Shown here piece by piece: positions 2,688 to 44,305 of a stretch of 64,000 nucleotides of DNA (positions within the stretch are counted from its first letter, which is position 1; each line of letters opens with the position of its first letter). Made by a program: the position numbers and the translations under genes. This DNA is from a bacterium (lineage in GTDB: Bacteria > Sysuimicrobiota > Sysuimicrobiia > Sysuimicrobiales > Humicultoraceae). The notes beneath the pieces were generated by a model. That model made no database searches. It had not been told where the DNA came from and saw only the letters and a list, made by a program, of their open reading frames with translations. The stretch covers positions 25,097 through 89,096 of the forward strand of contig JBOGSD010000068.1 of assembly GCA_050695215.1 (NCBI GenBank). Reading direction: 5' to 3'.

Positions 2688-3115
2688 GGGGCGTCCTCCA
2701 GGTAGCCTTCCAGATGGGCCCGGATGAACGCCAGCAGTTCAGCGTCGGTGCGCTCGGGGTCGAGGGCGTCCTCCCGGACGAGCGTGAGGGGGGTGCGCAG
2801 CCGGCGCGGCCCCACGAACTCGACGCGGATCCCGGCGGCGTCCTCCTCGACGTCCAGGCGGGAGCCGGGGGCCAGGTCCGCGGCGACGCGGCGGACCAGC
2901 GCCAGGTAACGGTCCAGCCCCGCGTAGTTGTGTAGCGCCGTCATGGCCCGCTCGCGCGCGTCGGCCGTGTCACGGCCGCGTACCAGGTGAGGAACAAAGG
3001 GACGTGCCCCGTCTCCGGAGCCCTCCAGCACGGCGACTTCCACCCGACGGAGGTCCGGACGCTCTACATAGCGGAAGGTGAAGCGGCGGCCGTAAAGGCT
3101 TACTTCCTCTGTCAC
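2684..3115 (-). CDS. Hypothetical protein (143 aa)
   Basis: Bridges the recombinase and the lipoprotein with ATGA-type overlaps on both sides. No recognised domain. Confidence 0.45.
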   Translation of the reverse strand: MTEEVSLYGRRFTFRYVERPDLRRVEVAVLEGSGDGARPFVPHLVRGRDTADARERAMTALHNYAGLDRYLALVRRVAADLAPGSRLDVEEDAAGIRVEFVGPRRLRTPLTLVREDALDPERTDAELLAFIRAHLEGYLEDAP

Positions 3116-4020
3116 GTCGGGTATTTCAGCTCCCGTTCTACGACTTCCGATAGGCGTTCTCTTGCGACCTTGGTATACACTCGCGTTGTCTTGGGGTCCT
3201 TGTGGCGAAGGATATCCTGGATGTACTGCAACGGCACGCCCCGGTCCGCGAGCGTCACGCCTGCGGTATGACGCAGGTCGTGGAAGCGCAAGCGCCTCTC
3301 GATAGCGGCATCTTTGAGGTACCTGGCCAGGGCTTTCTCGACCGTCGTGTAGTGCAGCCGTCTCGCGCCTCGCGGTGGCAATGGGATGAACACCGCCCGT
3401 GAGGCGCAGACTGGTCGACGAGCCAGCCAGGACTCCACCGCCTGGACGGCGTCTTCGCTCACCGGCTGGATGGCCTCCGCACCGCCTTTTCCTGTGATCT
3501 TGAGCTGCCTCCGATCAAGCAGAAGATCCACAAGGTCGAGGTTCAGGATCTCGCTGATCCGGAGCGATTGCAGCCCCAGTTCGATGATGGCGCGGTCACG
3601 GAGCCCCCGGTCGTGGCGCGGGATAGCCCGCCTCAGCGCACCGACCTCTTCCGGCAGGAGGAAGTTTGGGGTCCGCTCGGGGACCCTGGGGGGCCGAATC
3701 GATTGAGCGGGGTTGGCGTCCAGTCTTCCAGTCTCCACGAGATACGCGTAGAAGCGCCGAATGGCGACAATACGGCGGGCTCTGGAGCGTGGGGCGAGAC
3801 CGGCACGGGTCATCGCGTGAGCATACCGTCGAACGACGTCTGCGGTGACCGCGGCGAGATCCGTCTTCTGGAGGAACTCCATGAACTGCCGGAGATCCCC
3901 CAGGTACTCGCCGACCGTCCTATTGGACTTGTTGGCGCTGTCCAGATCCCCGGCCCACTCCTGGAGGAGAGGGGGGAGGTCGGCTGGCATGCCGCGGCGG
4001 CGGCCATACGATCTAGCCAT
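3112..4020 (-). CDS. Tyrosine site-specific recombinase, XerC/XerD family
   Basis: C-terminal catalytic region HDLRHT...LGH-like...RVYT with catalytic Tyr. N-terminal SAM-like core-binding domain. The start could instead be at 3990. Confidence 0.8.
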   Translation of the reverse strand: MARSYGRRRGMPADLPPLLQEWAGDLDSANKSNRTVGEYLGDLRQFMEFLQKTDLAAVTADVVRRYAHAMTRAGLAPRSRARRIVAIRRFYAYLVETGRLDANPAQSIRPPRVPERTPNFLLPEEVGALRRAIPRHDRGLRDRAIIELGLQSLRISEILNLDLVDLLLDRRQLKITGKGGAEAIQPVSEDAVQAVESWLARRPVCASRAVFIPLPPRGARRLHYTTVEKALARYLKDAAIERRLRFHDLRHTAGVTLADRGVPLQYIQDILRHKDPKTTRVYTKVARERLSEVVERELKYPT

Positions 4021-4107: not shown

Positions 4108-4121
4108 CGAACGAGTGTTTG
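4108..4121 (+). promoter_or_regulatory. Candidate LexA (SOS) box CGAACGAGTGTTTG
   Basis: Cheo-type GAAC-N4-GTTC-like palindrome between divergent lexA and the recombinase operon. The same CGAAC-N4-GTTTG form occurs upstream of recA at 39587-39600. Confidence 0.5.
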
Positions 4122-21856: not shown

Positions 21857-21956
21857 TGGTGGCGGAGGGCCCTGGGAATCGAACCCAGCGCGGAACCCGA
21901 GGCCCCGCCACCGGTTTTGAAGACCGGGACCCGCACCAGCGGACACTGCCCTCCGC
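21857..21956 (-). tRNA. selC: tRNA-Sec (selenocysteine tRNA, anticodon UCA)
   Basis: Reverse complement reads GCGGAGGG..GUCCGC-UGGU-GCGGGU..CCGGU-CUUCAAA-ACCGG..long variable arm..CUGGG-UUCGAUU-CCCAG..CCCUCCGC-CACCA. The anticodon loop CUUCAAA is identical to E. coli selC. 6-bp D-stem with 4-nt loop, long extra arm, about 100 nt total. The exact 5'/3' ends are uncertain by 1-3 nt because of the CCACCA tail. Confidence 0.75.
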
Positions 21957-30160: not shown

Positions 30161-32395
30161 TCAGTGCGTCGTGGGGGGTGGCTGCCAGAGGGGCCCGGGC
30201 AGGTCGGGCGGCGGCGGCGCGGAGGCGTCCACGGGGATGACGCGGTCGGCGTAGGGTTCATACTCCGGGCGGCACGTAAACAGCAACACCTGGTGGGTCT
30301 CGCTGACGCGGCGCAGCAGGGCCATCGCCGCGGCCAGACGCTCCGGATCGAAGGAGCCAAAGGGGTCGTCCAGCAGCAGCGGCGGGCGCCGCCCCTCCGA
30401 GAGCACCTCCACCAGGGCCAGGCGGACGGCCAGGTAGACCTGGTCGGCGGTGCCCCGGCTGAGGGTCGGTTCGGCCGGCTCGACCCACTGTGCCGCCGCG
30501 TCGGCCCACACCGTGATCTGCAGCGGGTTTTCCGTGATGCTGACTCGCCCATACGCCGCCTGAGTGAGGAGGGCCAGGTACTCTCCCGCCCGCTCCTCCA
30601 CGCGCTGCCGGGCCGGGATCACGGTGAGCTCTCGGGCCAACCGCAGCCCTGCGGACGCCAGACGGACCACTCGTCCCCGACGCTCCGCCGTCTCGAGGGC
30701 CTCCTGCCGGTCGGCCAGGCGCTCCTCGGTGGCCGCCAGCGCTTCATCGTCGGGCGCGCCCTGGGCGGTCTCCCGCTCCAGATATTCTCGCCGCCCTGCG
30801 AGCGTATGCACCGTCTGGGTGAGGTCCTTCACCGTCCGCTCGAGCTGCTGCACCTCGAGGCCGGTGAGGCGTTTGGCCTCCGCGTCGCTCAGCTGAATCT
30901 CCCGTCCGGCCACGTCCGCGCGCCGCCGGTCGCGCGCCTCTCGGAGATCCGCAAGGTCCTGCCCGCCGAGATGGGCTGCCACCTGACTCCCGGTGCCGGT
31001 CCGGTCGTCTTCCAGCTGGCGCATCCGCGCGTGGCGCGCCAGCGCCTCCTCCACGGTGGCGCTCCCGGCCCCGGCGACCGTCTCTTGGAGGGCCGCCTGT
31101 GCCGCGATCAGTTCTTCCTGGGCCGCGGCGAGGTGTCGTTTGGCCTCCTCCAGCCGCAGGAGGGCCTCGGCGCGTGTCCGCGCCACGTCCTCACGGCGCC
31201 GCCGCCGCCGTTGCTCGAGGCCGAGCAGGAGGAGGCCAGCCAGGCCGGCCGCCACCGCCGCGGGCCAGAGGGGTCCGACCGACCAGACAGCCGCCGCCGC
31301 CGCGGCGACGGCGGCGAGGACGATCAGCAGCCAGCCGAGGGGTCGTCTCCGGCTCCGCGCGTCGACGGAGGCGGCGGATGCCGTCACGCTTCCGGTCAGC
31401 GTCTCGGCGGCACCGACCCTGCGTGCCAGGTCCTCGGCGGTCTTCTCCTGCTGCTGCACCCGCCCGGCCGCCGCGTGGATGCGGGCGACCGCGGTGTCGT
31501 CGGGGACTCCGCTGGCCTGGAGCGCCTCCAGGTCGCGCCCAATGCCTTCGAGGCGATCGTACCCTCGCTCGACGGCGTTCACGCGTTCCGCCAGTTGCCG
31601 GGCCTCCGCGCGGAAGTGCTCCAACTCGCGATCGATGCGGAGCAGCCGCTGGTTCTCGGTGAGCAGGGCCTCCCGGTCGGCGAGGTCGGTGGCCGCCCGG
31701 TCGGCCTCCTCTCGGAGGCGCCTGAGCTCCTCCCGCTGTCCCTCCAGCACCTCGACGCGGCGGCGGAGTCCATCCCGCTCCCGCGTCAGCGCGGCCACCT
31801 CGTCCTGCCGGCCGCGAATCACCCCGGGCGTTTTTACGGGACGACCATCCAGCCCCTTCTCCAGTTCAGCCAGTTCCTTGTCCAGCTTCTTGATCACTGC
31901 GCCCGCCTCGGCATCTCCCGGGCCGGCCTGAATGATGCGGGAGAGGCGCTGCCCGATGTCCGTGGCGCCTTTCTGCAGGACGGTCAGCTCGGTTTGCTCG
32001 ATCATGGCCGTCGACCGATACAAGGGCTCTGTGGAGAGGCCAAGGGCATGCTGCAGCCGTTCCTGGACCTTGCCGCCTTCCCACGACACGCCGTTGAGCA
32101 GATCACGGAGCTCCGTGCGGCGGTGCTCGAAATCCTTGCGCAGCTCGAAGCGCCTGCCGTCCAGCTCAAACTCTACGGAGATGGAGCCCACGCGGTCGCT
32201 GCCCCAGGGGCGCCACTCGGCGACCTTCTTGGCCGTCGTGGCCGGGTTGACGAAGAACGCGGCCAGGATGGCCTGACGCAGCGTCGACTTGCCGGCCTCA
32301 TTGGGACCGACCAGGAGGTTCAGGCCCGGATCGAAGCGGTACTCCGCATCGTCGAAGCGGCGGAAGTTGCGCAGACGGAGGGCGAGCAACCGCAT
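30161..32395 (-). CDS. sbcC: SbcC/Rad50-like DNA repair ATPase (744 aa)
   Basis: N-terminal Walker A GPNEAGKST, long coiled coil, C-terminal signature and D-loop (LLLDDPFGSFD). ATGA overlap with sbcD. Confidence 0.75.
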   Translation of the reverse strand: MRLLALRLRNFRRFDDAEYRFDPGLNLLVGPNEAGKSTLRQAILAAFFVNPATTAKKVAEWRPWGSDRVGSISVEFELDGRRFELRKDFEHRRTELRDLLNGVSWEGGKVQERLQHALGLSTEPLYRSTAMIEQTELTVLQKGATDIGQRLSRIIQAGPGDAEAGAVIKKLDKELAELEKGLDGRPVKTPGVIRGRQDEVAALTRERDGLRRRVEVLEGQREELRRLREEADRAATDLADREALLTENQRLLRIDRELEHFRAEARQLAERVNAVERGYDRLEGIGRDLEALQASGVPDDTAVARIHAAAGRVQQQEKTAEDLARRVGAAETLTGSVTASAASVDARSRRRPLGWLLIVLAAVAAAAAAVWSVGPLWPAAVAAGLAGLLLLGLEQRRRRRREDVARTRAEALLRLEEAKRHLAAAQEELIAAQAALQETVAGAGSATVEEALARHARMRQLEDDRTGTGSQVAAHLGGQDLADLREARDRRRADVAGREIQLSDAEAKRLTGLEVQQLERTVKDLTQTVHTLAGRREYLERETAQGAPDDEALAATEERLADRQEALETAERRGRVVRLASAGLRLARELTVIPARQRVEERAGEYLALLTQAAYGRVSITENPLQITVWADAAAQWVEPAEPTLSRGTADQVYLAVRLALVEVLSEGRRPPLLLDDPFGSFDPERLAAAMALLRRVSETHQVLLFTCRPEYEPYADRVIPVDASAPPPPDLPGPLWQPPPTTH

Positions 32396-33504
32396 CAGCC
32401 GGCGCCCGCCTCCGCCAGGAGCTGGCTCACCCCGGTCTGCAGCGCCTCCTCAAAGAGATCCTGCTCTTCCAGAGCCGCGGCCTGTGCCTGCTCACGCATC
32501 AGCCGGATGTAGCGTCCCACGAGCGTCCGCTCCGGGAAGGCGTTGAGCGTCTCCTCGTCCAGCCAGAGCCGCGACTGATTACGCACACGCGCGCGGAAAC
32601 ATCCTTCGGCGAGCTTCTCCTCCAGCTCCCGGGCCTCCAGGGTGTGCTCTGGCGTCACGGTTCCGCTCAAGACGACATCGAGCACCGCATCGGGGTTCGC
32701 CTCCGCGGCCAGCTGAGCTCGGACCCGGTCGGGATCGAGTCCGGAGATGTCCAGCTCCACCCGGCGGTAGCGCCGTCGTCCCACCGGGATGGGCGTGACC
32801 TCGGCTTGTCCGGGCGCGGGAATCGTGACCAGGAGCGCCTGTCCCGCTTCCTGGTCCATCGCCAGAAACTCCGGCGCTCCGGCGTACCAGGCGGGTGCGG
32901 GTGGAGGCGTGACCTGCTGGGCGGTATGCCAGTCGCCCAGGGCGAGGTAGTCGAGAGCGAGCGCGCGGATATCTGAGGGATGGATCGTGCCGGCCTCGAC
33001 CACGCCTTCCCGGTAGGCGCTGCCGTGGGCCAGGCCGATCGCAAAGCGGGCCCCCCGCTCCTTCGGCCAGGCGCGCAACGGTTGCGGCCCCTCTGGTCCC
33101 ACTGACTGGCCAACGACGGTCAGATCGAGATCGGGGTACGCTTTCACCCGAGGATCGGACCCAAAGAGCGTCACGTTGGAACAGACGTCTTCAATGCGGG
33201 CCCGCGCCCAGACGCTCCCCTCTCCCAGCCGGTCGTGGTTGCCGGCCAGCAAGGCGACGCGCACCCCTGCGTCGCGCAGGCGGAGGAATTGCTCACGGAC
33301 GAAGCCCAGCGTCCCCTCGCTCTGGCGGTGGGAATGGAAGAGATCTCCGGCGATGAGCAGCAGGTGGACCGGTTCGGCCAGCGCCACGTCGACGAGCCGG
33401 GCAAAGGTCCGCTGCAACTGCTCGCGGTGGTCCCGCCCGCGCTCTCCCAGGGCCGGAAAGGCCATCCCCAGGTGCACATCGGCCGTGTGCAAGAGCTTGA
33501 TCAT
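32395..33504 (-). CDS. sbcD: SbcD/Mre11-family nuclease
   Basis: Calcineurin-like phosphoesterase motifs (HTADVHLG, GDLFH, GNHD). Confidence 0.8.
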   Translation of the reverse strand: MIKLLHTADVHLGMAFPALGERGRDHREQLQRTFARLVDVALAEPVHLLLIAGDLFHSHRQSEGTLGFVREQFLRLRDAGVRVALLAGNHDRLGEGSVWARARIEDVCSNVTLFGSDPRVKAYPDLDLTVVGQSVGPEGPQPLRAWPKERGARFAIGLAHGSAYREGVVEAGTIHPSDIRALALDYLALGDWHTAQQVTPPPAPAWYAGAPEFLAMDQEAGQALLVTIPAPGQAEVTPIPVGRRRYRRVELDISGLDPDRVRAQLAAEANPDAVLDVVLSGTVTPEHTLEARELEEKLAEGCFRARVRNQSRLWLDEETLNAFPERTLVGRYIRLMREQAQAAALEEQDLFEEALQTGVSQLLAEAGAG

Positions 33505-33510
33505 TTCAAA

Positions 33511-33614
33511 GTGTCCGGCGGCCTCATCTTTTCGGCGTCTCCGGCGGCCTCATCTTTTCGGCGTCTCCGGCGGCCTCATCATTCCGGCGTCTCCGGCGGC
33601 CTCATCATTCCGGC
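33511..33614. repeat. Tandem direct repeat, 26 bp x 4 copies (plus a partial fifth inside the helicase 3' end)
   Basis: Unit GTCTCCGGCGGCCTCATC(TT/AT)TTCGGC / ...ATTCCGGC repeated head-to-tail. Lies 7 bp upstream of the sbcD ATG and immediately after the helicase stop. Confidence 0.8.
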
Positions 33615-36600
33615 GTCTCCGGCAGCACCGGATCGCCTGTCGCGGTGTAGGGGCAGATCGAGTTGAAGGCGCAATAGCGGCAGGCCACATAGTAGTCGGG
33701 GGTGGCGATGAACTGCTGCGCGCGGACGCCCCCTGAGGCGTGCTCGATCACCTGTGTCGCCTCGGCCAGCATCTCCTCGTCCGGCGCGGTCTCTCCGACG
33801 AGCACCTGCTGCGGCCCCAGGAAGTGCAGTTCCAGCCGTTCCGGCGGTTTGCCGTAGACCTCCCGATAGGCTAGGGCGTAGATGCCGAGCTGGCGGCTCT
33901 CCCGCGCGCGACGGTCGGCGTCCTTCTGCGTGCGCACATCGCTGGTCTTAAAGTCGATGACGACCGCGTCAGATCCGCGCAGGTCGACGCGGTCCCAACG
34001 ACCTTTCACCCGGGTCAGCCCCACCTGGAAGGAAAAGGGCGCCTCCACGAAGGTGGGGCGCCGACCCTGGGCCTCCTGAAAATCGAAGAAGGTGCGCAGG
34101 ACCGCCCGCCCCTCCTCCATGCGCTGGTCCTCGTGCTCACGGCTGATGAACCCTTCGTTGATCCAGGCCCGCTCGAAGATCGTCAGCAGGTCGGCAGCGG
34201 TGACGGGCTGGGCGCGGGCGCGCCGGCGGTTGTACTCACGCACCGCCTCGTGCACGGCGCTGCCGTAGACGACGCGATGGTCGCGCAGCAGCGGCACGCG
34301 CAGGATGTGCGTGTACTTGAACTTCAGCGGGCAGGTCGCGTAGTCGTCCACCTGGCGAAACGAGAGGCTCAGCGGTTCCTCCGGCGGGATCACCCCGGCC
34401 AGGGTCTGCTGCCCCTCCGTGGGCGGCGCGTGCCGCTGGATCGTCTCCGTGGGGGCGGCTCGGAAGGCGGCGGACTCCGGCGCGGGACGGTCGAGCGCCT
34501 CCAGCACGAAGCGGCTGACCTTGCGTGGCCGCACCCCGCCGTAGTCGCGCGCGCTGGTCAGGTACAATTCGCGCCTCGTTCGCGTCATCGCCACGTAGAA
34601 GAGGCGCCGCTCCTCCTGCAGGTGGAAATCGCCCTGCGGCAGGAGATCCTTCACCAGCGGATCGGGCAGGGCGATCGGTTCCCCGCGGTTGCGCGTGGGG
34701 AAGCGGTCGGCCACGGCCGAGACCAGGAACACGACGGGAAACTCGAGCCCCTTGGCCTTGTGCACGGTGAGAACGTTGACGGCGTCGCTGTCGAAATCGG
34801 CCTCGGCCATCGCCGGGTCGTCCCCGGCGGCGATGAGGTCGTCCAGGTGCTTGACGAATTCGGGGACGCGATCGTAGGTGGCAATCTCGCCGTACCGCGC
34901 CACGATCTCGAAGAAACGGGCGAGGTTGCGCACGGCCATCTCGTCGGTGGGGTTCTCGGAGGTCGCCAACCGTCCCACCAGCCCGGTGCGGCTGACGAGA
35001 TAGCTGTAGAGGACACGCCCGGTGGGCTGGTCTTTCATCAGGCGGCGCATCTCGTCGAGGTCGTCGAGCAGGCGATCCAGCGCCGCCCGGGTCTCCGGCC
35101 CGATCTCTTCGGCCAGATCGGAGAAGGCGGTCAGTCGTCGGAAGACGTACTCCAGGGTCCGGTTCCGCCGGTTGGCATACGCCAGCGCCTTGGCCACGTC
35201 GGTCGGGCTGATCAGGTAGATCGGCGAGATCCCCAGGTAGTAGAGGCTGAGGTTGTCCGCCGGATTGGCCAGCGCCCGCAAGAAGGCGAGCACGAGGCGG
35301 ATCTCCTCCCGGTTGTAGAGCCCGCGGTTGCCGGTGAAGCGGTGCGGCACCCCCCGCAAGTTGAGCGCCCGCAGGAAGGGGTCGGCGTCGTGGTTGCTGC
35401 GGACCAGGATGGCGAAGTCTTTGTACCGGTACGCCGCGGCGGCCACCCGCTCGGCGATGTGCGCAGCCACCCCGTCGGCTTCACTGCTGAGGGTATCGAA
35501 GTGCAGGTGCTGCACCTCCGGACCCGTCGAGCTGGACGTGAGCCGTTTGTCGATCTGGTTGCGGACCTCCAGCCGGTCGGGATCGTTGTGGCGGATCAAC
35601 CGGTAGGCGACGTCCAGCACGGGCTGGGGTGAGCGGTAGTTGCGGGTGAGGACGACCTGGGTCGCGTCGGGATAGGTCGCGGTGAACCCCAGAATGTTGC
35701 TGATCGAGGCGCCGCGGAACTTGAAAATGGCCTGATCGTCGTCGCCGACGACGGTGACGGTGCGGTGCTGCCCCGCCAGCAGCTGCACCAATTGAAACTG
35801 CGCGTAGTTGGTGTCCTGAAATTCGTCCACCAGGATATAGCGGAACCGTTCCTGGTAGGCGCGCAGCACGCCGGGGCGCTCGCGGAAGAGGCGCAGGGGC
35901 AGCGTGATCTGGTCGCCGAAATCGAGCAGCCCTTCGCGCCCAAGCATTGTCTGGTAGACGCGGTAGGCTTGCGCCAGTTCGCCCTGCTTGCGCGCCGCGT
36001 CGGCCAATTCGGCGTCGTCGGAAGCCTGGGCGGCGGCCGCGGACACCCGCTCCGCGAAGGCAGCGTACTCCTCCGGTCCGGCGTCCTCGTCCTTCGCCCG
36101 GCTGAAGAGGGCGATGAGCGCCTCCACGTACCGGGTCGGGTCGCCGAGGGGCCGGTAGTACCGCAGGGGGAGCTCGAAGAGGCGGTCGCGCAGGAAGAGC
36201 ACCTGCTCGGCGCGGGAGAGGACGCGCACGTCCGGGGGCAGCCCCAACTCCAGGGCGTGCTGGCGCAGCACCCGGTCGCCGAAGGCGTGGAACGTGCCGA
36301 TGGTGATGTCCGTGTAGCCGTAGGGGGTGAGCAGGTCGACGCGTTCTTCCATCTCCGCGGCGGCCTTGTCGGTGAACGTGAGGGCCAGGATCTCCGAGGG
36401 GCGCGCGCGGCGGGCGGCGATCAGCCAGGCGATGCGGCGGGTGATCACCGACGTCTTTCCCGTCCCGGCTCCGGCGACGATGAGCAGTGGCCCTTCCCCG
36501 AACGTCACCGCGCGGAGCTGCTCTTCGTTCAACCCCTCCAGGGCCCGATCTGCCGCCCGTTCGGTCGTGCGGTCGCTGAAGCGATCTGGCGATCCCTTCG

Positions 36601-36670
36601 CGGCGAATTCTAAGATCAACTGGCCGCCGTCGGGGCGGTCAGGATAGCGCTGCAGAGGGCGTCCTGTCAT
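33605..36670 (-). CDS. UvrD/PcrA-like ATP-dependent helicase with C-terminal RecB/Cas4-type (Cys-cluster) nuclease domain (AddA/AdnB-like)
   Basis: Walker A AGAGTGKT and UvrD motifs. C-terminus carries CRYCAFNSICPY (Fe-S Cys cluster) and PD-(D/E)xK-like residues. Confidence 0.8.
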   Translation of the reverse strand: MTGRPLQRYPDRPDGGQLILEFAAKGSPDRFSDRTTERAADRALEGLNEEQLRAVTFGEGPLLIVAGAGTGKTSVITRRIAWLIAARRARPSEILALTFTDKAAAEMEERVDLLTPYGYTDITIGTFHAFGDRVLRQHALELGLPPDVRVLSRAEQVLFLRDRLFELPLRYYRPLGDPTRYVEALIALFSRAKDEDAGPEEYAAFAERVSAAAAQASDDAELADAARKQGELAQAYRVYQTMLGREGLLDFGDQITLPLRLFRERPGVLRAYQERFRYILVDEFQDTNYAQFQLVQLLAGQHRTVTVVGDDDQAIFKFRGASISNILGFTATYPDATQVVLTRNYRSPQPVLDVAYRLIRHNDPDRLEVRNQIDKRLTSSSTGPEVQHLHFDTLSSEADGVAAHIAERVAAAAYRYKDFAILVRSNHDADPFLRALNLRGVPHRFTGNRGLYNREEIRLVLAFLRALANPADNLSLYYLGISPIYLISPTDVAKALAYANRRNRTLEYVFRRLTAFSDLAEEIGPETRAALDRLLDDLDEMRRLMKDQPTGRVLYSYLVSRTGLVGRLATSENPTDEMAVRNLARFFEIVARYGEIATYDRVPEFVKHLDDLIAAGDDPAMAEADFDSDAVNVLTVHKAKGLEFPVVFLVSAVADRFPTRNRGEPIALPDPLVKDLLPQGDFHLQEERRLFYVAMTRTRRELYLTSARDYGGVRPRKVSRFVLEALDRPAPESAAFRAAPTETIQRHAPPTEGQQTLAGVIPPEEPLSLSFRQVDDYATCPLKFKYTHILRVPLLRDHRVVYGSAVHEAVREYNRRRARAQPVTAADLLTIFERAWINEGFISREHEDQRMEEGRAVLRTFFDFQEAQGRRPTFVEAPFSFQVGLTRVKGRWDRVDLRGSDAVVIDFKTSDVRTQKDADRRARESRQLGIYALAYREVYGKPPERLELHFLGPQQVLVGETAPDEEMLAEATQVIEHASGGVRAQQFIATPDYYVACRYCAFNSICPYTATGDPVLPETPE

Positions 36671-37359
36671 GAGGGGTCCAGGACCTCGTTCCTCCCCCGC
36701 CGCCGCAGGGTTCCGCCGTTCGGGCCAGGGCCCAACTGCCGCGCGGCCTCCCTGAGGATCGGGGCGATGGTGCTGCCGGAGAATCCCCGCCGCCTGAGGA
36801 GACCGGCCAGGCGGCGCAGGCGAACATCCAGGGTGAGCGCCTGTCCGCGGCTCAGATAGCGCGCCGCCGCGGCGGCCGCCATCTGCTCCTCCTGCTCCGG
36901 TGGCAGCGCCGCGCGCAGCGTCTCCTCGATGATGTCGGAGGCGACGCCCTTGAGGCGGAGCTCGGCCCGCAGCCGGTGCGGCCCTCTGCGGCCCGCGGCG
37001 AGCCGGCCATCGATCCAGAGCCTGGCAAAACGCCGGTCGTCGATCGTCCCGGCCTGAACCAGGTCGGTCAGCACCGCCTCCACGGCGGGGAGGGCGAAGC
37101 CCCGCCTTCGGAGCCGTCCGGTCAGTTCTGCCCGGCTGCGCGGGCGGTAGCGCAGGAGCGCCAGGGCGGCCTCACGGGCACGAGTCTCCTCGTCCAGCGT
37201 GGCGAGGCGTGTGAGGACCAGCGCGTCGATCTCCGTTGCCTCGGTAAGGGCAAGAGGGAGAGCGCGTTCCGCGTCCACCAAGAACCGGCGGCTATCGGCA
37301 AGCGTGACGGCGCGCAAGTGGCCCCCCCGTCCCGCCGGCCGGATTCGTCCGATCTGCAT
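36667..37359 (-). CDS. recX: RecA regulator RecX
   Basis: Triple helical repeat RecX-like sequence immediately downstream of recA. Confidence 0.75.
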   Translation of the reverse strand: MQIGRIRPAGRGGHLRAVTLADSRRFLVDAERALPLALTEATEIDALVLTRLATLDEETRAREAALALLRYRPRSRAELTGRLRRRGFALPAVEAVLTDLVQAGTIDDRRFARLWIDGRLAAGRRGPHRLRAELRLKGVASDIIEETLRAALPPEQEEQMAAAAAARYLSRGQALTLDVRLRRLAGLLRRRGFSGSTIAPILREAARQLGPGPNGGTLRRRGRNEVLDPS

Positions 37360-37362
37360 TGG

Positions 37363-39516
37363 TCAGGCCTTGACCTTGACCGGCGCCTCCTTGACCCCTG
37401 TTGCTTCGCGCTTGCCCTCGGCGCCGTCGCGTGAGCCTGCGCCGTTGCGCCGGGGCAGTCCCAGCGTGTCCCGGGTCCGCGTCTCCAGCTCGCGGGCCAG
37501 CTCGAGATTGCTCTCCAGGAAATCGCGCGCGTTGTCCCGCCCCTGGCCCAGGCGGAGGTCGCCGTAGGAGAACCAGGTGCCGGTGCGGCTGATCAGTCCG
37601 GCGGCGTGCGCCGTGTCGAGCAGGCTGCCGGTCCGGGAAATCCCCTGTCCGTAGAAGATGTCCACCTCGGCGTCGCGGAAGGGCGGGGCGAGCTTATTCT
37701 TCACCACTTTGATCCGCGCCCGCATGCCCTTGATCTCTTCCCCGCTCTTGATGGACTCGATGCGGCGGATCTCCATGCGCACGGAGGAATAGAACTTGAG
37801 GGCGCGGCCGCCAGTGGTGGTTTCCGGCGAGTTGTGGACGACAGCACCGCCGACGAGATAGGTGTGGTTGCCCTCAACCTCCAGATCAAACCGCCGCATG
37901 GAGCGTGTCGGCGGCTTCTTGTAGATCCGGGCGATCCTCGCGGGGACGGCACGGAGATACCGTCGGGCCGAGAGGCGGGTTCCGTTCAAGTGTGCATCAC
38001 TGAGATCGGGCTGCCAGGCATATCGACCGCGCAACGTGGGGTGAAGCTTATAATCCACTGACGGATGGAGATAGGGGGCGATCAATTCATGAAACTTCGC
38101 GGTCTGCTCTGCCGTAAACCAAAACCCCCGGCCGTCATCACGCGGTCGACCCACTCCGAGCCGTTCAAACAGGGCGGCCACCCGTTCCCGGTCAGTGCCC
38201 TGAAGCGACGTGTTGTAAATCGCAGCCTTTCCGTGACCCCAGCGTGCAAAGTGCCCGGCGAAGGATCCGTCGTCGCCGTACCATACGGCCACGCCGCGGG
38301 CATCGAGTTGGTCAAGGACCGTTGCCGCGGCGGTTCGCTGGCCTTCGGCGTACAAACTGGTCCGCAGTTCAGCAAGCGTGGGGAATGCGAGTGTTTCAAA
38401 TCCCTGTCCATTGCCCCTGGGACCGAAGTCCTGCGAGAACGGTTCCAGCATCCAGTGCTTCCATCTCGCATATGCGGTTTGTGCTTCCCCATGGCCCACC
38501 CGGAAGGACGCCGCCTGGGTACTCACCTGCCGGAGCGCTCCGTCACCCAGCGTCCCGCCCAGGATGAGCTGCAATTGATCCTCGGTCAGACGGTAGTCTT
38601 CGACTGAAGCCAATACCTCGTCACCTTCGCGGAGCTCACCCGCGGGAACTTCTCCCCGGGGCGTGAATATCATGTGGTTGGGAGTAACGCCAAATCGGCG
38701 CCGGCCCGACGGACCCCCTTCGATCTCGAATTGGAGGAAATGCTCGGCGTTCCCATTGTCGAACCAATTCACGACGCGGCGCGGCTGCAGCCTCCCGGTC
38801 GCGGCATCGTAACTGAGCACCTCGACGGGTATCCGCTGGTTGACGATCTTGCCGATCTTCATTCTGCTTCCGTCAGCGAGCACGACGCGAGCATTGTAGT
38901 GGAAGCAGCCAAACATGACCCCGATCTTCTCTCGGATCTGGTTGATGAAGATCACGGTGGTGTGGGACTTGCTGATCGTCCCCACCAGTTTGCGCAGCGC
39001 CTGGGACATCAGCCGGGCGTGCAGGCCGACGTGGGCGTCGCCCATCTCCCCTTCCAGTTCAGCCCGCGGCACCAGCGCGGCGACCGAGTCGATGACGATG
39101 ACGTCCACCGCGCCGCTGCGCACGAGCATCTCCGCGATCTCGAGGGCCTGCTCGCCGCTGTCGGGCTGGGAGAGCAACAGGCCATCGATGTCTACCCCCA
39201 CGGCCCGGGCGTAGTTGGGGTCGAGGGCGTGCTCGGCGTCGATGAAGGCGGCGACGCCGCCGTCGCGCTGCGCCTCGGCGATGATGTGGTAGCCCAGCGT
39301 GGTCTTCCCGGAGGCTTCGGGCCCGTAGATCTCCACGACCCGCCCCCGGGGGACGCCGCCCACCCCCAGGGCCGCGTCCAGGGCCACCGAGCCTGTCGAA
39401 ATCACTTCCACCTGTAATTTGGCAGAGGCTTCGCCCAGCCTCATGATGGAGCCCTTGCCGAACTGCTTCTCGATCTGGGTCAAAGCGAGCTCCAACGCTC
39501 GCTGGCGCTCATTCAT
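37363..39516 (-). CDS. recA: Recombinase RecA precursor containing an in-frame intein (717 aa; exteins 203+155 aa)
   Basis: Exteins align with RecA: Walker [10 protein letters not shown], ...[10 protein letters not shown] | [14 protein letters not shown].... A 359-aa insertion begins with Cys and ends with HN followed by Ser. Confidence 0.92.
37831..38907 (-). mobile_element. RecA intein (RecA-b insertion site) with LAGLIDADG-type homing endonuclease domain
   Basis: N-terminal splice junction G|[15 protein letters not shown]-terminal block [14 protein letters not shown]|S. Two LAGLIDADG-like motifs ([23 protein letters not shown]). Confidence 0.85.
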
Positions 39517-39586
39517 GCCGCGATTCCTCCCTCAGTCACGCCGCCCCGCCCGGCCGCATCGTCCATTTGAGATGCCGCCACAGTAC

Positions 39587-39600
39587 CAAACAAATGTTCG
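39587..39600 (-). promoter_or_regulatory. Candidate LexA (SOS) box CGAACATTTGTTTG upstream of recA
   Basis: Same CGAAC-N4-GTTTG form and the same orientation relative to the gene as the lexA box. Lies about 70 nt upstream of the recA ATG. Confidence 0.5.
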
Positions 39601-39705
39601 CATGTCAACTCTGCAAAACCCTCTGCTCCGGCCGATATTGAGGAGGGGCGTCCGGCAGCACATCGCATCAAATCCTGGGGTGATCGGCCGATCCCCGCAC
39701 CAGAT

Positions 39706-40314
39706 CTAGCGGTGCTCCTCAGGAGGATTCAAGGCGACGCCCAGTGGAACCTCCTGGAGGCTGGTGTATCTGGCGCCTTTTGGATGGAGGTGGCTCTCCA
39801 TGATCGCCAACGAGTCCACCGACTGCGCGCCCACCGGGACATCCTTAAATCCACTGAGCGCGCGGACGATCTCCCCCCAGCGGCGCTGGTGCTTCAGGCG
39901 GGTGATGGTGAGGTGGGCCACATACGGTCGTTTCTCACGCGGGAAGCGGTGGCGGGCGAGGGCGTCATCCAGGCGGGCCGAGATCACGGCCAGGTGCTCG
40001 CTTCCTTCGTGCACACCGATCCAGATGACCTGGGGCCGCGCCAGAGAGGGAAACGCTCCCACCCCCCGGAGGACCAGGCGGAAAGGCGATGCCGAGGCGG
40101 CGGCCTCGCGGGTGGCCAGACGGACCTGCGCCAGCTGCGCGGGGGAGATCTCCCCGAGGAAGCGCACGGTGAAGTGCAGGCTCTCCGGCGAAATCCACCG
40201 CAGCGGGGCGCCGGCTTGCCGCAGGCGCTCCTCCAGGCGGACGATCTCGTCGCGCAGCGCGCCGGCGAGGTGCACGGCGATGAAGATGCGGTGCCGCTGC
40301 CCTGAGACGCCCAT
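39706..40314 (-). CDS. thpR: RNA 2',3'-cyclic phosphodiesterase (ThpR/LigT, 2H family)
   Basis: Two H-x-T-x motifs (HFTVRF, HLTITR). Start set at the internal ATG at 40314; the upstream Arg/Gly/Pro-rich part of the ORF-track ORF is rejected. Confidence 0.7.
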   Translation of the reverse strand: MGVSGQRHRIFIAVHLAGALRDEIVRLEERLRQAGAPLRWISPESLHFTVRFLGEISPAQLAQVRLATREAAASASPFRLVLRGVGAFPSLARPQVIWIGVHEGSEHLAVISARLDDALARHRFPREKRPYVAHLTITRLKHQRRWGEIVRALSGFKDVPVGAQSVDSLAIMESHLHPKGARYTSLQEVPLGVALNPPEEHR

Positions 40315-40319
40315 GCCGC

Positions 40320-41558
40320 TCAGGAACGCAGCAGGCGGAGGCGGATCAGATCCAGGGCGGCCTGGCTGGCCAGAAAGCGGATCCCGCGGCGGCCGGGCTG
40401 TTTGCCGAATCGCCACGCCCGGCTGTGCACCCCTTCCCGGTCCGCCAGGGCGATAAAGACCAATCCCACCGGCTTCTCGGCGCTGCCACCAGCGGGCCCG
40501 GCGACCCCCGTGATGCCGAGGGCCAGGTCGCTGTCTGCCCGTTCGCGCGCGCCTCGCGCCATCGCCTCGGCCACGGCCGCGCTCACCGCCCCCTGGCGAT
40601 CGAGGAGGTCGGGAGAGACGCCGAGCAATGCCGTCTTGGCCGCGTTGCTGTAGGCGACTGCGCCGAACCGGAAGTAGGCCGAACTGCCGGGGAGGGCGGT
40701 CAACCGGTCGGCGGTCAGGCCGCCCGTGCACGATTCCCCCACAGCCACGGTCATCCCGTGCTCCAGGAGGAGCCGTCCGGCGACGACTTCGAGGGTGTCA
40801 TCGTCGACGCCAAAGATGAGGTTCCCCAGCCGCTCACGGACAGCGGCCTCGCCGGCGGCCAGCTGGGCCTCCACCTCGGCCGGCGGCCCCTTGGCCGTCA
40901 GACGGAGGTGCACCTCACCCAATTTCGCGTACGGTGCGATGGTTGGAGCGGGCAGCCGGAGCACATCCTTGATCCGCTCCTCCACGGCGGATTCGCCGAG
41001 CCCGGTGACCCTGAGGACGCGCGAGCGGATCACCGTCTCTCCCGTACGGGCGCGGAGCCAGGGCACGAGGAAGTCCTCCACCATGCCCTCCATCTCCCCG
41101 GGGACCCCCGGCATCATGACGATCGTGGACCCGCCAAGGGCCACCACCACTCCGGGAGCGGTGCCGCGCCGGTTCGGGATGATCTGCGCGCCGCTGGGAA
41201 TGAGCGCCTGTTTGTACACCGACTCTGGCGCAGGCCGCCCCCGCAGCGCGAAGAAGTCTCGGATCGAAGCGGCCACGGTCTCGTCACGCATGAGGGGCAG
41301 TCCGAGCGCCGCCGCGACGGTGGCCACCGTGAGGTCGTCCTCCGTCGGGCCCAGGCCGCCGGTGATGACGATCAGCTCAGCGCGGCCGAGGGCCAGGCGC
41401 ACGACTTCAGTCAGGCGGGCCGCGTTATCCCCAACGGTCTGTTTGAAGAAGAGATCGGCACCGGCGGAGGCGAGCACCCGGGCCAGGTAGGCGGCGTTGC
41501 TGTCGGTGATCTGACCGAGGAGGAGCTCGGTCCCAACCGAGAGGAGCTCGGCGCGCAC
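40320..41558 (-). CDS. cinA: CinA (competence/damage-inducible protein A; NMN deamidase domain)
   Basis: N-terminal MoCF-binding domain (LLSVGTELLLGQITDSN) and C-terminal CinA domain. Confidence 0.85.
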   Translation of the reverse strand: MRAELLSVGTELLLGQITDSNAAYLARVLASAGADLFFKQTVGDNAARLTEVVRLALGRAELIVITGGLGPTEDDLTVATVAAALGLPLMRDETVAASIRDFFALRGRPAPESVYKQALIPSGAQIIPNRRGTAPGVVVALGGSTIVMMPGVPGEMEGMVEDFLVPWLRARTGETVIRSRVLRVTGLGESAVEERIKDVLRLPAPTIAPYAKLGEVHLRLTAKGPPAEVEAQLAAGEAAVRERLGNLIFGVDDDTLEVVAGRLLLEHGMTVAVGESCTGGLTADRLTALPGSSAYFRFGAVAYSNAAKTALLGVSPDLLDRQGAVSAAVAEAMARGARERADSDLALGITGVAGPAGGSAEKPVGLVFIALADREGVHSRAWRFGKQPGRRGIRFLASQAALDLIRLRLLRS

Positions 41559-41561
41559 GCG

Positions 41562-42356
41562 TTAGGGTTCCTCGGGCGACTCGGGGAAGCGCAGCGTGAC
41601 GACCTGGCGGGGACGCCCAGGAGTGCCCAGGTCACGACCGTTGACGGTCAGTTCCACCACCCCGGCGTTGCCGATCCTGATCTCCAATGCCCGCGCCGCG
41701 GTCCATGTCCCGGCGTCGCCTGCATAGACGGTGCCCTGGAAGATCCGTTCCCCGTCCACGATGACACGGAGCCAGGAGGTGCCGGTCGCCGTGAGGACGA
41801 GCGTAATCCCCTCCCCCCCTGGCCCCGGAGGAGAGGGCACAGCGCCCGCCGGCGGTGGCGTCATGGCCGGCGGCTGGACGGGAGGTGGGGACGCGGGCGG
41901 CGTGGCCGGCGAGAAGGCCGCCGGGGGCGAGGGGGCGGCGCGGGGATCCGTCCGCACGAAACTCCGGACGTTGAGGTAGAGGACCACGGCGAGCGCGATG
42001 ACAACCGGGATCAGGATCCAGAGGGCCACCGTCACGATGCGGCGCAGCCGCGAGGGCGGCGCCGGGGGCTCGAGCGGAATTTCTGCCGCCTCTCTGAGAG
42101 GCGGCGGCGCCGCCGGGGGGATGCGGGACTCAAAGAGGGCCAGCACCGTCTCCGAGTCGAGGCTTAGGGCCAACGCGTAGGCGCGGACGAACCCCTTGGC
42201 ATAGGGCCGCGGCGGCAGGTCGGCGTAGCGTTCCTCTTCCAGCGCCGCCAGAAAGAGGGCGCGGATCTTGGTCAGCCGCTCGGCCTGCGCGAGGGAGAGC
42301 CCACGCGCCTCGCGGGCGGCGCGCAGCGTGGCGCCAAGTCCCGGACTCTCGTCCAC
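41562..42356 (-). CDS. RodZ-like protein (HTH-XRE, TM helix, Pro-rich linker, DUF4115)
   Basis: N-terminal HTH (LGATLRAAREARGLSLAQAE), single TM, Pro-rich segment and C-terminal beta domain. Confidence 0.65.
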   Translation of the reverse strand: MDESPGLGATLRAAREARGLSLAQAERLTKIRALFLAALEEERYADLPPRPYAKGFVRAYALALSLDSETVLALFESRIPPAAPPPLREAAEIPLEPPAPPSRLRRIVTVALWILIPVVIALAVVLYLNVRSFVRTDPRAAPSPPAAFSPATPPASPPPVQPPAMTPPPAGAVPSPPGPGGEGITLVLTATGTSWLRVIVDGERIFQGTVYAGDAGTWTAARALEIRIGNAGVVELTVNGRDLGTPGRPRQVVTLRFPESPEEP

Positions 42357-42435
42357 GATGAACTTCCTTTTATCTGGAAGGCGGGTCTTCCTCTACCGAG
42401 GGGATCGACCCGGATACCGGGAGAAGCCGTGCGCG

Positions 42436-43368
42436 TTAGGCGGGAAGCCGCTCCTCCGTCAGCGCCACCGCGATCTGGGCCCCCAGCGCGGCGTTCGCTT
42501 CCAGCAATGCCAGGTTGGCCTCGACGGCCAGGCCGCCGGTCAGACGATCCACCTCTCCCAACAGGTAGGGCGTCAGGTCCCCGCCCCGGATGCCCTCGGT
42601 CTCGGCGCGCGCGATGGCGCGGCCCACTGCGTCGGCCACCGCCGCCGGATCGAGCGCGACGCCGGGCGGCGGAGGATTGGCGATTACCAGCGCGCTGGGA
42701 TCGCCCAGCCGTTCCTTGGCCCGGGCGATGGCGGCGATCTCGGCCGGTGTTTCCACCGTCCACGGCGCGGCGTAACCACTGTCGGCGATGTAGAAGAGGG
42801 GAAAGCGAGTGGTGCGATACCCGGCCACCGTGACCCCCCGGCTCTCCAGCGCTTCGAGCGTCGCCCCCGCGTCACAGATCGCCTTGGCACCCGAGCAGAC
42901 CAGCACCAGCGGCCGGCGGCTCAGTTCGTCCAGGTCGGCCGAGACGTCCCAGGTCCGCTCCGCGCCGATATGCACCCCCCCGATCCCACCAGTCGCCTGC
43001 ACGCGAATGCCGAGGGCGTGGGCGACAGCCAGCGTGGCCGAGACGGTGGTGCCGCCGCTGCTGGATCGGGCGATCGCCACCGCGAGATCGCGCCGGGCGA
43101 CCTTCGCCACGCCGGGGGCGGCCAGGTGCGCGAGATCATCAGCGGAGAGGCCCACGCGGACCCTGCCCTCTACCAGCGCCACGACCGCGGGGACCGCCCC
43201 TCCCTCCCTGACGGCTCGCTCGGTGCGCCGCGCTGCCTCCAGAGTGGCCGGATAGGGCAGGCCGTGGGTGATCACGGAGGATTCCAGGGCCACGACCGGC
43301 CCCCCCAGGCCGAGGCTGATCTGGATCTCGTCGCTGACGTCTAGCGGGATGGGCATCTGGGGCCTCAT
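42436..43368 (-). CDS. psuG: Pseudouridine-5'-phosphate glycosidase
   Basis: PVVALESSVITHGLPYP and downstream Mn-site motifs. Start chosen at an internal ATG preceded by GGGAG. Confidence 0.8.
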   Translation of the reverse strand: MRPQMPIPLDVSDEIQISLGLGGPVVALESSVITHGLPYPATLEAARRTERAVREGGAVPAVVALVEGRVRVGLSADDLAHLAAPGVAKVARRDLAVAIARSSSGGTTVSATLAVAHALGIRVQATGGIGGVHIGAERTWDVSADLDELSRRPLVLVCSGAKAICDAGATLEALESRGVTVAGYRTTRFPLFYIADSGYAAPWTVETPAEIAAIARAKERLGDPSALVIANPPPPGVALDPAAVADAVGRAIARAETEGIRGGDLTPYLLGEVDRLTGGLAVEANLALLEANAALGAQIAVALTEERLPA

Positions 43369-43435
43369 CCGGGCACGCTCCCGTCGCTCAAGTCCCCCCA
43401 GGTTCGCATAGCGAAACCCTGGGGGGGTACCCCAA

Positions 43436-44305
43436 CTACGTACCACTCCATACAGTTCCCACTTCCGGGGGCACATTCCCCCAGGTCGCGATGGTCATCG
43501 CGGCGGCCTCAGCGCCGGCGGCGAGGACGCGCTCAGGGGCACTCCCCGCGGCGAGGCCGTAGATGACGGCAGCGGCCGCGACATCCCCCGCCCCGGTCGC
43601 GTCCACGAACGCATCGGGAGTACGCGCGGGGTGGGCCATCCACTTCTCGACGAGCAACCCCAGGCCCCTCGGTCCTTCGGTGAGCAACACGTGAGCCGGC
43701 CCCAGCGCCTGGACTGCACGGGCAAGTGGTTCCCCGCCGGGCGGAGCGGCCACCCCCACCAGCACGGCGGCTTCGGCGGCGGTCAGGCAGATCAGCCATG
43801 TCCGCGGCAGCAGCTCACGCAACCGTGCCACCTTTGCCGGGGAAGTGCCGATTAACGCGATCCGTTCCGCCGGAGCGGCGAGGGCGGCGAGCACCGGTTC
43901 GAGGAGGTTGGCGTCGAGGACGAGCAACGGAGCCGGCCCCTCCGCGGACCCCGGCCATGACCGCGGATCAACGGATTCGATGATGGCGGTATCAGCGATG
44001 CCCGCGCCGTTGACCATCACGTACAGGCCGGTCTGACCCGGCCGGCGCAGGACGCCCGTGCAATCGACGCCGCCCGCGGCGGTGGCCGCGATCACCCAGT
44101 CCCCCCAGGCGTCCTGTCCCACGGCGGAGAGCAGACGAACCTCCGCACCCATGCGGGCCAGCGCCTCGGCGGCATTGCGCGCGACGCCGCCGGGGCAGAG
44201 GCGGATCCGACCCGGCGTCGAGACGCCCCCGCCGGGCGGGAGGCTGCTCCGCACTTTGATATCGACGTTGGCGGCGCCGGCGACGACGGCGGCGGGCGGC
44301 CTCAC
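43436..44305 (-). CDS. psuK: PfkB-family carbohydrate kinase (pseudouridine kinase-like)
   Basis: AANVDI N-terminal motif and DTTGAGD-like C-terminal motif (DATGAGD). Start set at GTG 44305; the longer ORF would overlap the divergent plus-strand gene. Confidence 0.7.
   Translation of the reverse strand: MRPPAAVVAGAANVDIKVRSSLPPGGGVSTPGRIRLCPGGVARNAAEALARMGAEVRLLSAVGQDAWGDWVIAATAAGGVDCTGVLRRPGQTGLYVMVNGAGIADTAIIESVDPRSWPGSAEGPAPLLVLDANLLEPVLAALAAPAERIALIGTSPAKVARLRELLPRTWLICLTAAEAAVLVGVAAPPGGEPLARAVQALGPAHVLLTEGPRGLGLLVEKWMAHPARTPDAFVDATGAGDVAAAAVIYGLAAGSAPERVLAAGAEAAAMTIATWGNVPPEVGTVWSGT

Follow-up and report, generated by a model that had tools for sequence, protein, structure and literature searches.

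A predicted class-1 intein with a LAGLIDADG endonuclease domain at RecA site b, and its empty-site relatives

Introduction

Inteins interrupt the RadA and RecA recombinases at five insertion points (Topilina et al. 2015; PMC4513877, Table 1). In that table, site b is occupied in Mycobacterium leprae (206-570), in other actinobacteria, in Thiovulum and in a cyanobacterium, and site a is occupied in M. tuberculosis (252-691). Here we analyse a stretch of 64,000 nucleotides from contig JBOGSD010000068.1, hereafter the window, in which the chromosomal recA gene is interrupted by a 359-aa insertion. The host is an uncultured Armatimonadota/CSP1-3-like bacterium and the insertion is a member of the known, routinely annotated site-b family of inteins; its architecture, site and chemistry are not new. 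RecA inteins of this M. leprae type have reportedly been described since 1994.

The M. leprae RecA intein (PI-MleI) occupies the same insertion point, is 365 aa long against 359 aa here, and has the same Cys1, terminal His-Asn pair and Ser at position +1. Inteins of the M. leprae type are colinear with the window intein at ~40% identity through the splicing and endonuclease domains, and the mycobacterial matches carry the PF03161 endonuclease found here. The differences lie in the actinobacterial host and in the loops after the second LAGLIDADG motif, which are shorter in the window intein; in addition, the Mycobacterium sp. homologue P0128 has Asp and Met where the window intein has Gly353 and Ala355. 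The M. tuberculosis RecA intein (PI-MtuI, site a) shares the host protein, the class-1 type, Cys1 and His-Asn, and provides the best match in the Protein Data Bank (PDB) for the splicing domain, but it is inserted ~46 residues further downstream, is 440 aa long and has Cys at +1.

More distant comparisons involve the two domains separately or in combination. I-SceI and I-WcaI have two LAGLIDADG motifs per chain and belong to PF03161, as does the endonuclease domain in the window, but they are free-standing proteins encoded by organellar group I introns, lack Hint domains and are only 13-16% identical. PI-SceI, PI-PfuI and PhoVMA have the same two-part architecture of Hint and LAGLIDADG domains in other host proteins, at 12-14% identity; PI-PfuI has 454 residues and 2cw7 has 537, whereas PhoVMA, at 361, is about the size of the window intein. 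Several inteins of this group are larger than the window intein and carry extra regions for DNA recognition.

Results and discussion

An in-frame insertion in recA

The recA gene and the parts into which the insertion divides it are located as follows.

37363..39516, minus strand: recA precursor, a single open reading frame (ORF) of 717 codons encoding 717 aa and 78.6 kDa, made up of N-extein, intein and C-extein
38908..39516, minus strand: N-extein, RecA residues 1-203, matching RecA structures
37831..38907, minus strand: intein, 359 aa and 40.2 kDa, from Cys1 to His358-Asn359, equal to the exact 1077-bp gap against the intein-less relative L112
37363..37830, minus strand: C-extein, residues 204-358 of spliced RecA and the stop codon, with Ser+1 first (SPETTTGG)

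A first-pass annotation made from the DNA letters had described a 717-aa recA ORF with a 359-aa insertion at 37831-38907, and we obtained identical coordinates, with the insertion spanning precursor residues 204-562. In the ORF list and its translation, the recA frame is continuous over 2154 nt without a stop or frameshift; a frameshift was the outcome that the first-pass annotation had named as damaging to its reading, and inspection of the ORF found none. The Pfam RecA model scored 440.8 bits on the precursor, with the match split around the insert, and the TIGR02012 recA model scored 522.5 bits. Conceptual splicing gives a product of 358 aa that aligns with no gap across the junction to the crystal structures of RecA from E. 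coli, M. smegmatis and M. tuberculosis, with E values down to 1e-144. The N-extein ends in REKIGVMFG, and this gapless alignment bears out the proposal that the exteins are exactly RecA-like around KIGVMFG/SPETTTGG.

The exteins evolve slowly. The nonsynonymous divergence (dN) of the exteins from L112 is 0.009-0.018, and the ratio of nonsynonymous to synonymous divergence (omega) against the intein-bearing loci L001-L003 is 0.04-0.10, a sign of strong purifying selection. A frameshifted or disrupted recA was therefore rejected, given one ORF and strongly constrained exteins. The proper annotation is an intein-containing recombinase RecA, and neither a fusion protein nor a pseudogene. Look-up of the exact precursor sequence in the assembly collection returned no record.

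The splicing domain

The splicing elements lie at the two ends of the insertion.

38596..38907, minus strand: N-terminal splicing (Hint) region, intein residues 1-104, supported by TIGR01445 over residues 1-82, by alignment to 2IN0 and by Foldseek at 1.3-1.4 A over ~101 columns
38869..38907, minus strand: block A with Cys1, in the N-terminal splicing region
38659..38700, minus strand: block B with Thr75 and His78 (VTPNH), in the N-terminal splicing region
37831..37962, minus strand: C-terminal splicing region, intein residues 316-359, supported by TIGR01443 and by alignment to the C-terminal segment of 2IN0; it contains block F (Asp341, His348) and block G, GGAVVHN (His358, Asn359)

Alignment to intein hidden Markov models (HMMs), which the first-pass annotation had proposed as a check, gave 42.6 bits for TIGR01445 intein_Nterm (cut-off 24.5) and 19.2 bits for TIGR01443 intein_Cterm (cut-off 15.6). 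The insertion reads CFHYNARV...VVHN and is followed by SPETTTGG, in agreement with the proposed Cys start and His-Asn end before Ser+1; the residues flanking the splice sites are thus canonical (Cys1, His-Asn, Ser+1), and the non-canonical flanks against which the first-pass annotation had cautioned were not found. The Pfam models Intein_splicing (22.1 bits, cut-off 35.8) and Hint (20.4 bits, cut-off 29.7) both stayed below threshold, which is a sensitivity limit of these models and not counter-evidence to an intein.

Conservation was evaluated in an alignment of 74 same-site inteins, consisting of the window intein and 73 genome loci. Residues C1, T75, H78, D122, D212, D213, D341, H348, H358 and N359 are each conserved in at least 97% of this set. 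The top sequence match in the PDB was the M. tuberculosis RecA mini-intein (2IN0; E 3.6e-13), which aligned in two segments corresponding to the N- and C-terminal splicing regions. In this alignment VTPNH faces the mini-intein TPDH, and D341, H348, H358 and N359 face its FDLEV, HT and HN (segment FDLEVEELHTLVAEGVVVHN). The window intein departs from the near-invariant consensus at four residues, S124A, F296Y, D353G and V355A.

We also built an AlphaFold2 model of the intein from an 18-sequence alignment (mean predicted local distance difference test score, pLDDT, 90.6; predicted template modelling score 0.84) and searched it against the PDB with Foldseek. The top matches of the whole chain were PI-PfuI, PhoVMA and PI-SceI, with E values of 5.5e-13 to 5.6e-10; the whole-chain template modelling (TM) scores against these three inteins are low (0.33-0.35) because the domain orientation differs. 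For the splicing domain, the M. tuberculosis RecA mini-intein was the best structural match at 1.3-1.4 A, and a Hint fold is predicted, with Foldseek probability 1.00 to the RecA (M. tuberculosis), DnaB, DnaE and NrdJ mini-inteins and to hedgehog Hint domains. The sequence and the model together identify the insert as a predicted class-1 intein in which a bipartite Hint splicing domain encloses a single-chain LAGLIDADG endonuclease: the insertion is in frame with a host protein that can be restored, and it combines Cys1 and TxxH, the block F Asp and His, His-Asn followed by Ser+1, and the predicted Hint fold. A search of all six-frame ORFs with the family HMM matched recA only, with no further inteins in the 64-kb window.

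The endonuclease domain

The middle of the intein is occupied by the predicted endonuclease.

38008..38595, minus strand: LAGLIDADG homing-endonuclease domain, intein residues ~105-300, a two-motif single chain resembling I-SceI
38539..38571, minus strand: LAGLIDADG motif 1, residues 113-123, including LGGTLGD122G; Asp122 is putatively catalytic, and in the model the motif terminates helix 109-120
38266..38298, minus strand: LAGLIDADG motif 2, residues 204-214, including VWYGDD213G; Asp213, next to Asp212, is putatively catalytic, and the motif terminates helix 203-213

The two LAGLIDADG-like motifs noted in the first-pass annotation were both located, at residues 113-123 and 204-214. Pfam LAGLIDADG_2 (PF03161) matched residues 113-219 with 46.1 bits (cut-off 25), which, like the two TIGR intein scores, lies far outside what chance would produce. 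Across the 74 inteins, G121, D122 and G123 of motif 1 and W209, Y210, D212, D213 and G214 of motif 2 are at least 97% conserved, as are ~40 other positions in the endonuclease domain. The pLDDT exceeds 90 across most of the domain. Searched alone with Foldseek, the domain retrieved I-SceI and I-WcaI with TM scores of 0.67-0.70 on the target and root-mean-square deviations of 3.9-4.5 A over 202 columns. These features are those of a two-motif, single-chain LAGLIDADG protein, with two helices that end in an acidic residue and Gly, and a predicted two-lobed alpha-beta-beta-alpha-beta-beta-alpha fold. Against the three closest intein-bearing loci, dN of the endonuclease region is 0.125-0.24 (0.125 for L001) and omega is about 0.07-0.14, a level close to that of the splicing regions. 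The description of the endonuclease as apparently intact thus holds at the level of sequence and model, with a full-length domain, invariant catalytic Asp residues, purifying selection and a confidently predicted I-SceI-like fold.

Several same-site relatives have shortened inteins of 230-268 aa from which part of the endonuclease is deleted. In P0037 (268 aa) the deletion fuses LAGLIDADG motif 1 to residues just past motif 2, and in P0090, P0091 and P0098 (230-239 aa) the second half of the endonuclease domain is gone. These shortened inteins represent the decay stage of the homing cycle.

Assignment to site b and spread of the family

The precursor is colinear, through exteins and intein, with the RecA of Mycobacterium sp. 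P0128, with identical junctions KIGVMFG/C...VHN/SPETTTGG, and the intein is 40% identical to that of P0130 over 313 residues (E 2e-64), both LAGLIDADG motifs included. P0130 is itself 99% identical to a putative M. leprae intein sequence that served as a query. The same query also matched named Mycobacterium and Mycolicibacterium entries annotated as intein-containing recombinase RecA at 84-86% identity. The link to the M. leprae intein itself, which is supported at the sequence level, rests on this putative sequence and on the named Mycobacterium sp. matches. The RecA-b, M. leprae-type site put forward in the first-pass annotation is thereby upheld by the junctions shared with P0128, by the homology to the P0130 intein and by the definition of site b in PMC4513877. 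Membership of the site-a, M. tuberculosis-type group was rejected, as the NF007072 model scored 485 bits against a cut-off of 1024 and the junction differs. The NCBI product name "intein-containing recombinase RecA" is used for site-b proteins too, though NF007072 describes the site-a architecture.

A protein search with the intein gave 412 matches, and among the 120 matches listed every sequence that covers a junction has GVMFG/C, HN/SPETT or both. When one genome per species was scanned with a profile, relatives turned up in at least 535 species, and the best 80 loci were analysed. These best 80 are mainly full-length inteins of 352-364 aa at site b; 73 of them have recognisable motifs at both junctions, and the remainder are seven loci that are truncated at a contig end, vary at a junction or, in the case of L080, are broken. 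The hosts include Armatimonadota/CSP1-3, Rokubacteria, Eisenbacteria, Blastocatellia, Gemmatimonadota, Gaiellales, Chromatiaceae, Competibacteraceae and others. Two of the loci call for separate mention. In L080 (contig_8967 of a Rokubacteria metagenome-assembled genome, MAG) the frame of the intein-bearing recA is broken, the longest ORF being 312 aa, so that the locus may be a pseudogene or misassembled. The intein-containing recA of L041 is of bacterial type and lies in an archaeal bin (a "Nitrosotalea sp." MAG), probably as a contaminant.

Nearly every homologue of the intein-containing RecA in the databases is a partial protein from a short contig (1-5 kb). Metagenome assemblies thus seem to break often at intein-bearing recA, possibly as a result of mixed intein-plus and intein-minus alleles, a point that matters for genome binning. 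General knowledge of inteins is little changed by one more member of a long-known group with relatives in so many species genomes.

Homologous inteins were also found on contigs labelled as viral in IMG/VR. The RecA-like proteins of L081-L093 and L100 are divergent, and their inteins (31-43% identity) are full length and occupy the site-b position; in most of them the junctions read GVMFG/C...HN/SPETT, and L086 and L090 have the variant GV/C...HN/SFG. Phage recA could be a vehicle that spreads the site-b intein across phyla. A further set (L094-L103, L105 and L106) has related inteins of 26-32% identity that start CF.YHTP..LADG and directly follow a DE motif in proteins of 931-1452 aa. The DE motif is probably the Walker B of an ATPase or helicase, which would place the same intein lineage in a different host gene.

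Empty sites and mobility

A search with the spliced exteins retrieved intein-less RecA proteins of exactly 358 aa, P0241 (97%) and P0242 (96%). The contigs of the intein-less relatives are fully syntenic with the window over rodZ, cinA, ligT, recA, recX, a UvrD/PD-(D/E)XK helicase-nuclease, sbcD-like and sbcC-like genes. L112 and the window share 93.3% nucleotide identity over 10.6 kb and 94.8% over 7.7 kb, and the 1077-bp intein is the sole gap. The spliced recA coding sequence can be aligned base for base with the 1077-nt recA of L112 (L112 10001..11077), and synonymous divergence (dS) of the flanking genes is ~0.10. Ten close relatives were ranked by extein identity to the window RecA, among them the following.

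L112, intein absent: 98.2% extein identity over 330 aa; junction of the empty site ATAGGGGTAATGTTCGGA/TCGCCAGAAACGACGACC
L113, intein absent: 96.1% extein identity over 330 aa; junction of the empty site ATCGGGGTGATGTTTGGC/TCGCCGGAAACGACGACC
L001, intein present: 95.0% extein identity, over 261 aa only
L117, L119 and L116, intein absent: ~91% extein identity
L118, intein absent: 88% extein identity
L003 and L002, intein present: 85% and 83% extein identity

Such patchy alternation of presence and absence is what a homing cycle should produce, and parsimony favours one gain in the window lineage over two or more precise losses.

The differences between the two alleles are concentrated at the insertion point. 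The recA genes of the window and L112 show 39 differences, ten of which fall within -30 to +17 nt of the junction; such clustering was reached in only 3 of 20000 permutations. With L113 and L116 as outgroups, the window has the derived state at the three changes on the C-terminal side (ACC ACC ACT against ACG ACG ACC), as would be expected of a short co-conversion tract. The changes on the N-terminal side are derived in L112 and include the only ATA, GTA and CCA codons of its recA together with a GGA, all in codons 198-205 and no more than six codons from the empty site; locus-wide, ATA makes up 1.1% of Ile codons and GTA 1.4% of Val codons. These L112 codons could have been selected because they make the target resistant to cleavage, or could be the footprint of conversion. 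Taken as sequence evidence, the empty site of L112 and the substitutions at the junction point to a recent gain or a precise loss, and would fit a recently active endonuclease.

Divergence of the intein relative to its host genes bears further on mobility. Between the window and L001, dS is 0.85-0.90 for host genes and ~2.06 for the inteins, and between some phyla the similarity of the inteins exceeds that of the RecA exteins (148 of 2080 pairs). Both observations point to horizontal movement, the dS contrast being no clean evidence because the weaker codon bias of the intein inflates dS. The GC content at third codon positions (GC3) of the intein is 0.70, whereas stretches of 359 codons in nine neighbouring genes never fall below 0.816.

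The residue at +1 varies among empty sites. The 120 closest intein-less RecA proteins have Asn at +1 in 102 cases and Ser in 18; Asn at +1 is unable to act as the splicing nucleophile. A Phe-to-Trp change at position -2 in GVMFG is present in 4 of the 18 Ser+1 alleles and in none of the 102 Asn+1 alleles, in a comparison uncorrected for phylogeny. Variant empty sites read GVMWG/S in P0243, P0245, P0282 and P0355 and GVLFG/S in P0247, P0248, P0335 and P0360, and variant sites also occur at loci L117-L119, with L117 and L119 of the GVMWG type. A speculative reading, to which we would assign a low probability, is that the locus is the scene of an ongoing homing contest in which the intein was gained after the split from L112, and the L112 codons and the Phe-to-Trp and Met-to-Leu changes in the GVMFG of Ser+1 alleles confer endonuclease resistance. 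If true, the locus would pair an invaded allele with a resistant target, a natural match that is rare for a bacterial intein endonuclease. Apart from that reading, the locus provides a natural intein-plus/intein-minus pair whose nucleotide identity is ~94% and which bears a footprint at the junction, and the L112- and L113-type empty sites are ready substrates for study of the cleavage specificity, co-conversion and target resistance of a site-b endonuclease from outside the Actinobacteria.

Proposed mechanism and alternative explanations

We consider it very likely that the element is a full-length class-1 RecA site-b intein that undergoes canonical splicing and has a LAGLIDADG endonuclease for homing. 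In this proposal recA would be transcribed, probably from a LexA-controlled promoter, to give the 78.6-kDa precursor. Cys1 would undergo an N-S acyl shift aided by Thr75 and His78 of block B, Ser+1 would attack the resulting thioester, and Asn359 would cyclise with the aid of His358 and with Asp341 and His348 of block F. An O-N shift would then join Gly203 to Ser, giving 38.5-kDa RecA and a free 40.2-kDa intein. The endonuclease, through Asp122 and Asp213, would cut an intein-less recA close to where the intein inserts, and the element would spread when the break is repaired from the intein-bearing copy. The IGVMFG/SPETTTGG insertion point falls in the L2 DNA-binding loop of RecA, between E. 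coli G204 and N205; the insertion lies in a conserved segment, and the unspliced precursor should therefore be inactive. On the conserved residues and predicted folds, confidence that the protein actually splices is high, and we lean, with less assurance, towards present-day endonuclease activity.

Several observations weigh against this proposal. Gly353 and Ala355 lie in block G (37831..37851) beside the C-terminal splice site, where 97% of the 74 homologues have Asp and 99% have Val. Neither residue is known to be catalytic, and P0102, another homologue, shares the Gly at 353; judged from sequence, the two changes could affect the efficiency or rate of splicing, and they may be an artefact of the MAG consensus. 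The M. leprae homologue reportedly fails to splice in E. coli, which would make host-dependent splicing possible. For the endonuclease, dS is saturated in the comparisons, which makes omega a rough value that resembles an upper bound. With respect to mobility, the difference in presence and absence could be a precise loss in L112 and not a gain in the window lineage. The low GC3 of the intein is weakened as proof of recent transfer, since all 73 other hosts likewise have a lower GC3 in the intein than in the exteins. The searches turned up no near-identical donor intein, the best identities being 75-77% among the matches listed in the protein search, 83.6% (L001) in the genome scan and 84% (L120) in a metagenome scan.

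A possible but doubtful alternative is that the intein splices and its endonuclease is inactive, the element being a passenger at a fixed or late stage of homing that is kept since imprecise deletion would destroy recA. The partial loss of the endonuclease domain in same-site relatives shows that such decay occurs in the family, no near-identical donor or recipient was found in the searches, and the saturation of dS weakens the test for selection. Against this, the domain is full length and confidently folded in the model, with both LAGLIDADG Asp residues and the other ~40 positions conserved, and dN is low against L001 despite the saturated dS. An empty site at dS ~0.1 together with substitutions at the junction is also hard to explain without a recent gain driven by the endonuclease or by recombination.

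It is unlikely, though compatible with the proposed splicing and homing, that the intein serves as a conditional post-translational switch on RecA that responds to redox state, metal ions, temperature or DNA damage. The expected inactivity of the precursor until splicing, the apparent position of recA behind a LexA-type box and the retention of an intein at site b across many phyla would suit such a role, and conditional splicing has been documented for RadA and DnaB inteins (PMC4513877, PMC6195587). However, the sequence has no sensor signature, for example no second conserved Cys near Cys1 among the invariant positions, and the existence of very close relatives that lack the intein runs contrary to a needed regulatory role. 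It is highly improbable that the insertion does not splice and leaves recA a pseudogene or a permanently inactive precursor, as D353G and V355A at near-invariant block G positions and the sub-threshold Pfam Intein_splicing and Hint scores might suggest, given that the frame is intact, all known catalytic splice residues are present, the TIGR intein models are passed, the exteins are under strong purifying selection, and the recA-recX operon and upstream signals are intact.

Candidate promoter and gene neighbourhood

The sequence upstream of recA contains a candidate regulatory region, and recX follows recA directly.

39580..39608, minus strand: candidate SOS-regulated recA promoter, TTGACA at 39603..39608, a 17-nt spacer and TACTGT at 39580..39585
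39587..39600, minus strand: Cheo-type LexA-box-like palindrome CGAACATTTGTTTG, inside the 17-nt spacer and ~70 nt upstream of the recA start
36667..37359, minus strand: recX, 3 nt downstream of recA in the same operon context, with Pfam RecX_HTH1 and RecX_HTH2

The LexA-box-like pattern CGAACNNNNGTTYG occurs twice in the window against 0.25 occurrences expected by chance. A consensus promoter scan did not call the TTGACA-17-TACTGT arrangement, in which the -10 hexamer has only three of six consensus positions, and the promoter keeps candidate status. On these sequence features the recA precursor, and hence the endonuclease, is probably SOS-inducible. The second match to the pattern, CGAACGAGTGTTTG, is located at 4108..4121 on the plus strand, ~90 nt upstream of an ORF at 3112..4020 on the minus strand that encodes a XerC/D-like tyrosine recombinase (Phage_integrase and SAM-like domains).

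The recA gene lies in a conserved DNA-repair neighbourhood at 30161..43476 on the minus strand, which comprises indigoidine-synthase-A-like, rodZ, cinA, ligT/thpR, recA, recX, a UvrD-PD-(D/E)XK fusion (1021 aa), an sbcD-like phosphoesterase and an sbcC-like ATPase. The order cinA-ligT-recA resembles the Deinococcus arrangement. Elsewhere in the window, a tRNA-Sec gene (anticodon TCA) was identified at 21860..21954 on the minus strand by ARAGORN and Rfam (70.1 bits) as the only match of the Rfam and tRNA scans, and the host presumably uses selenocysteine.

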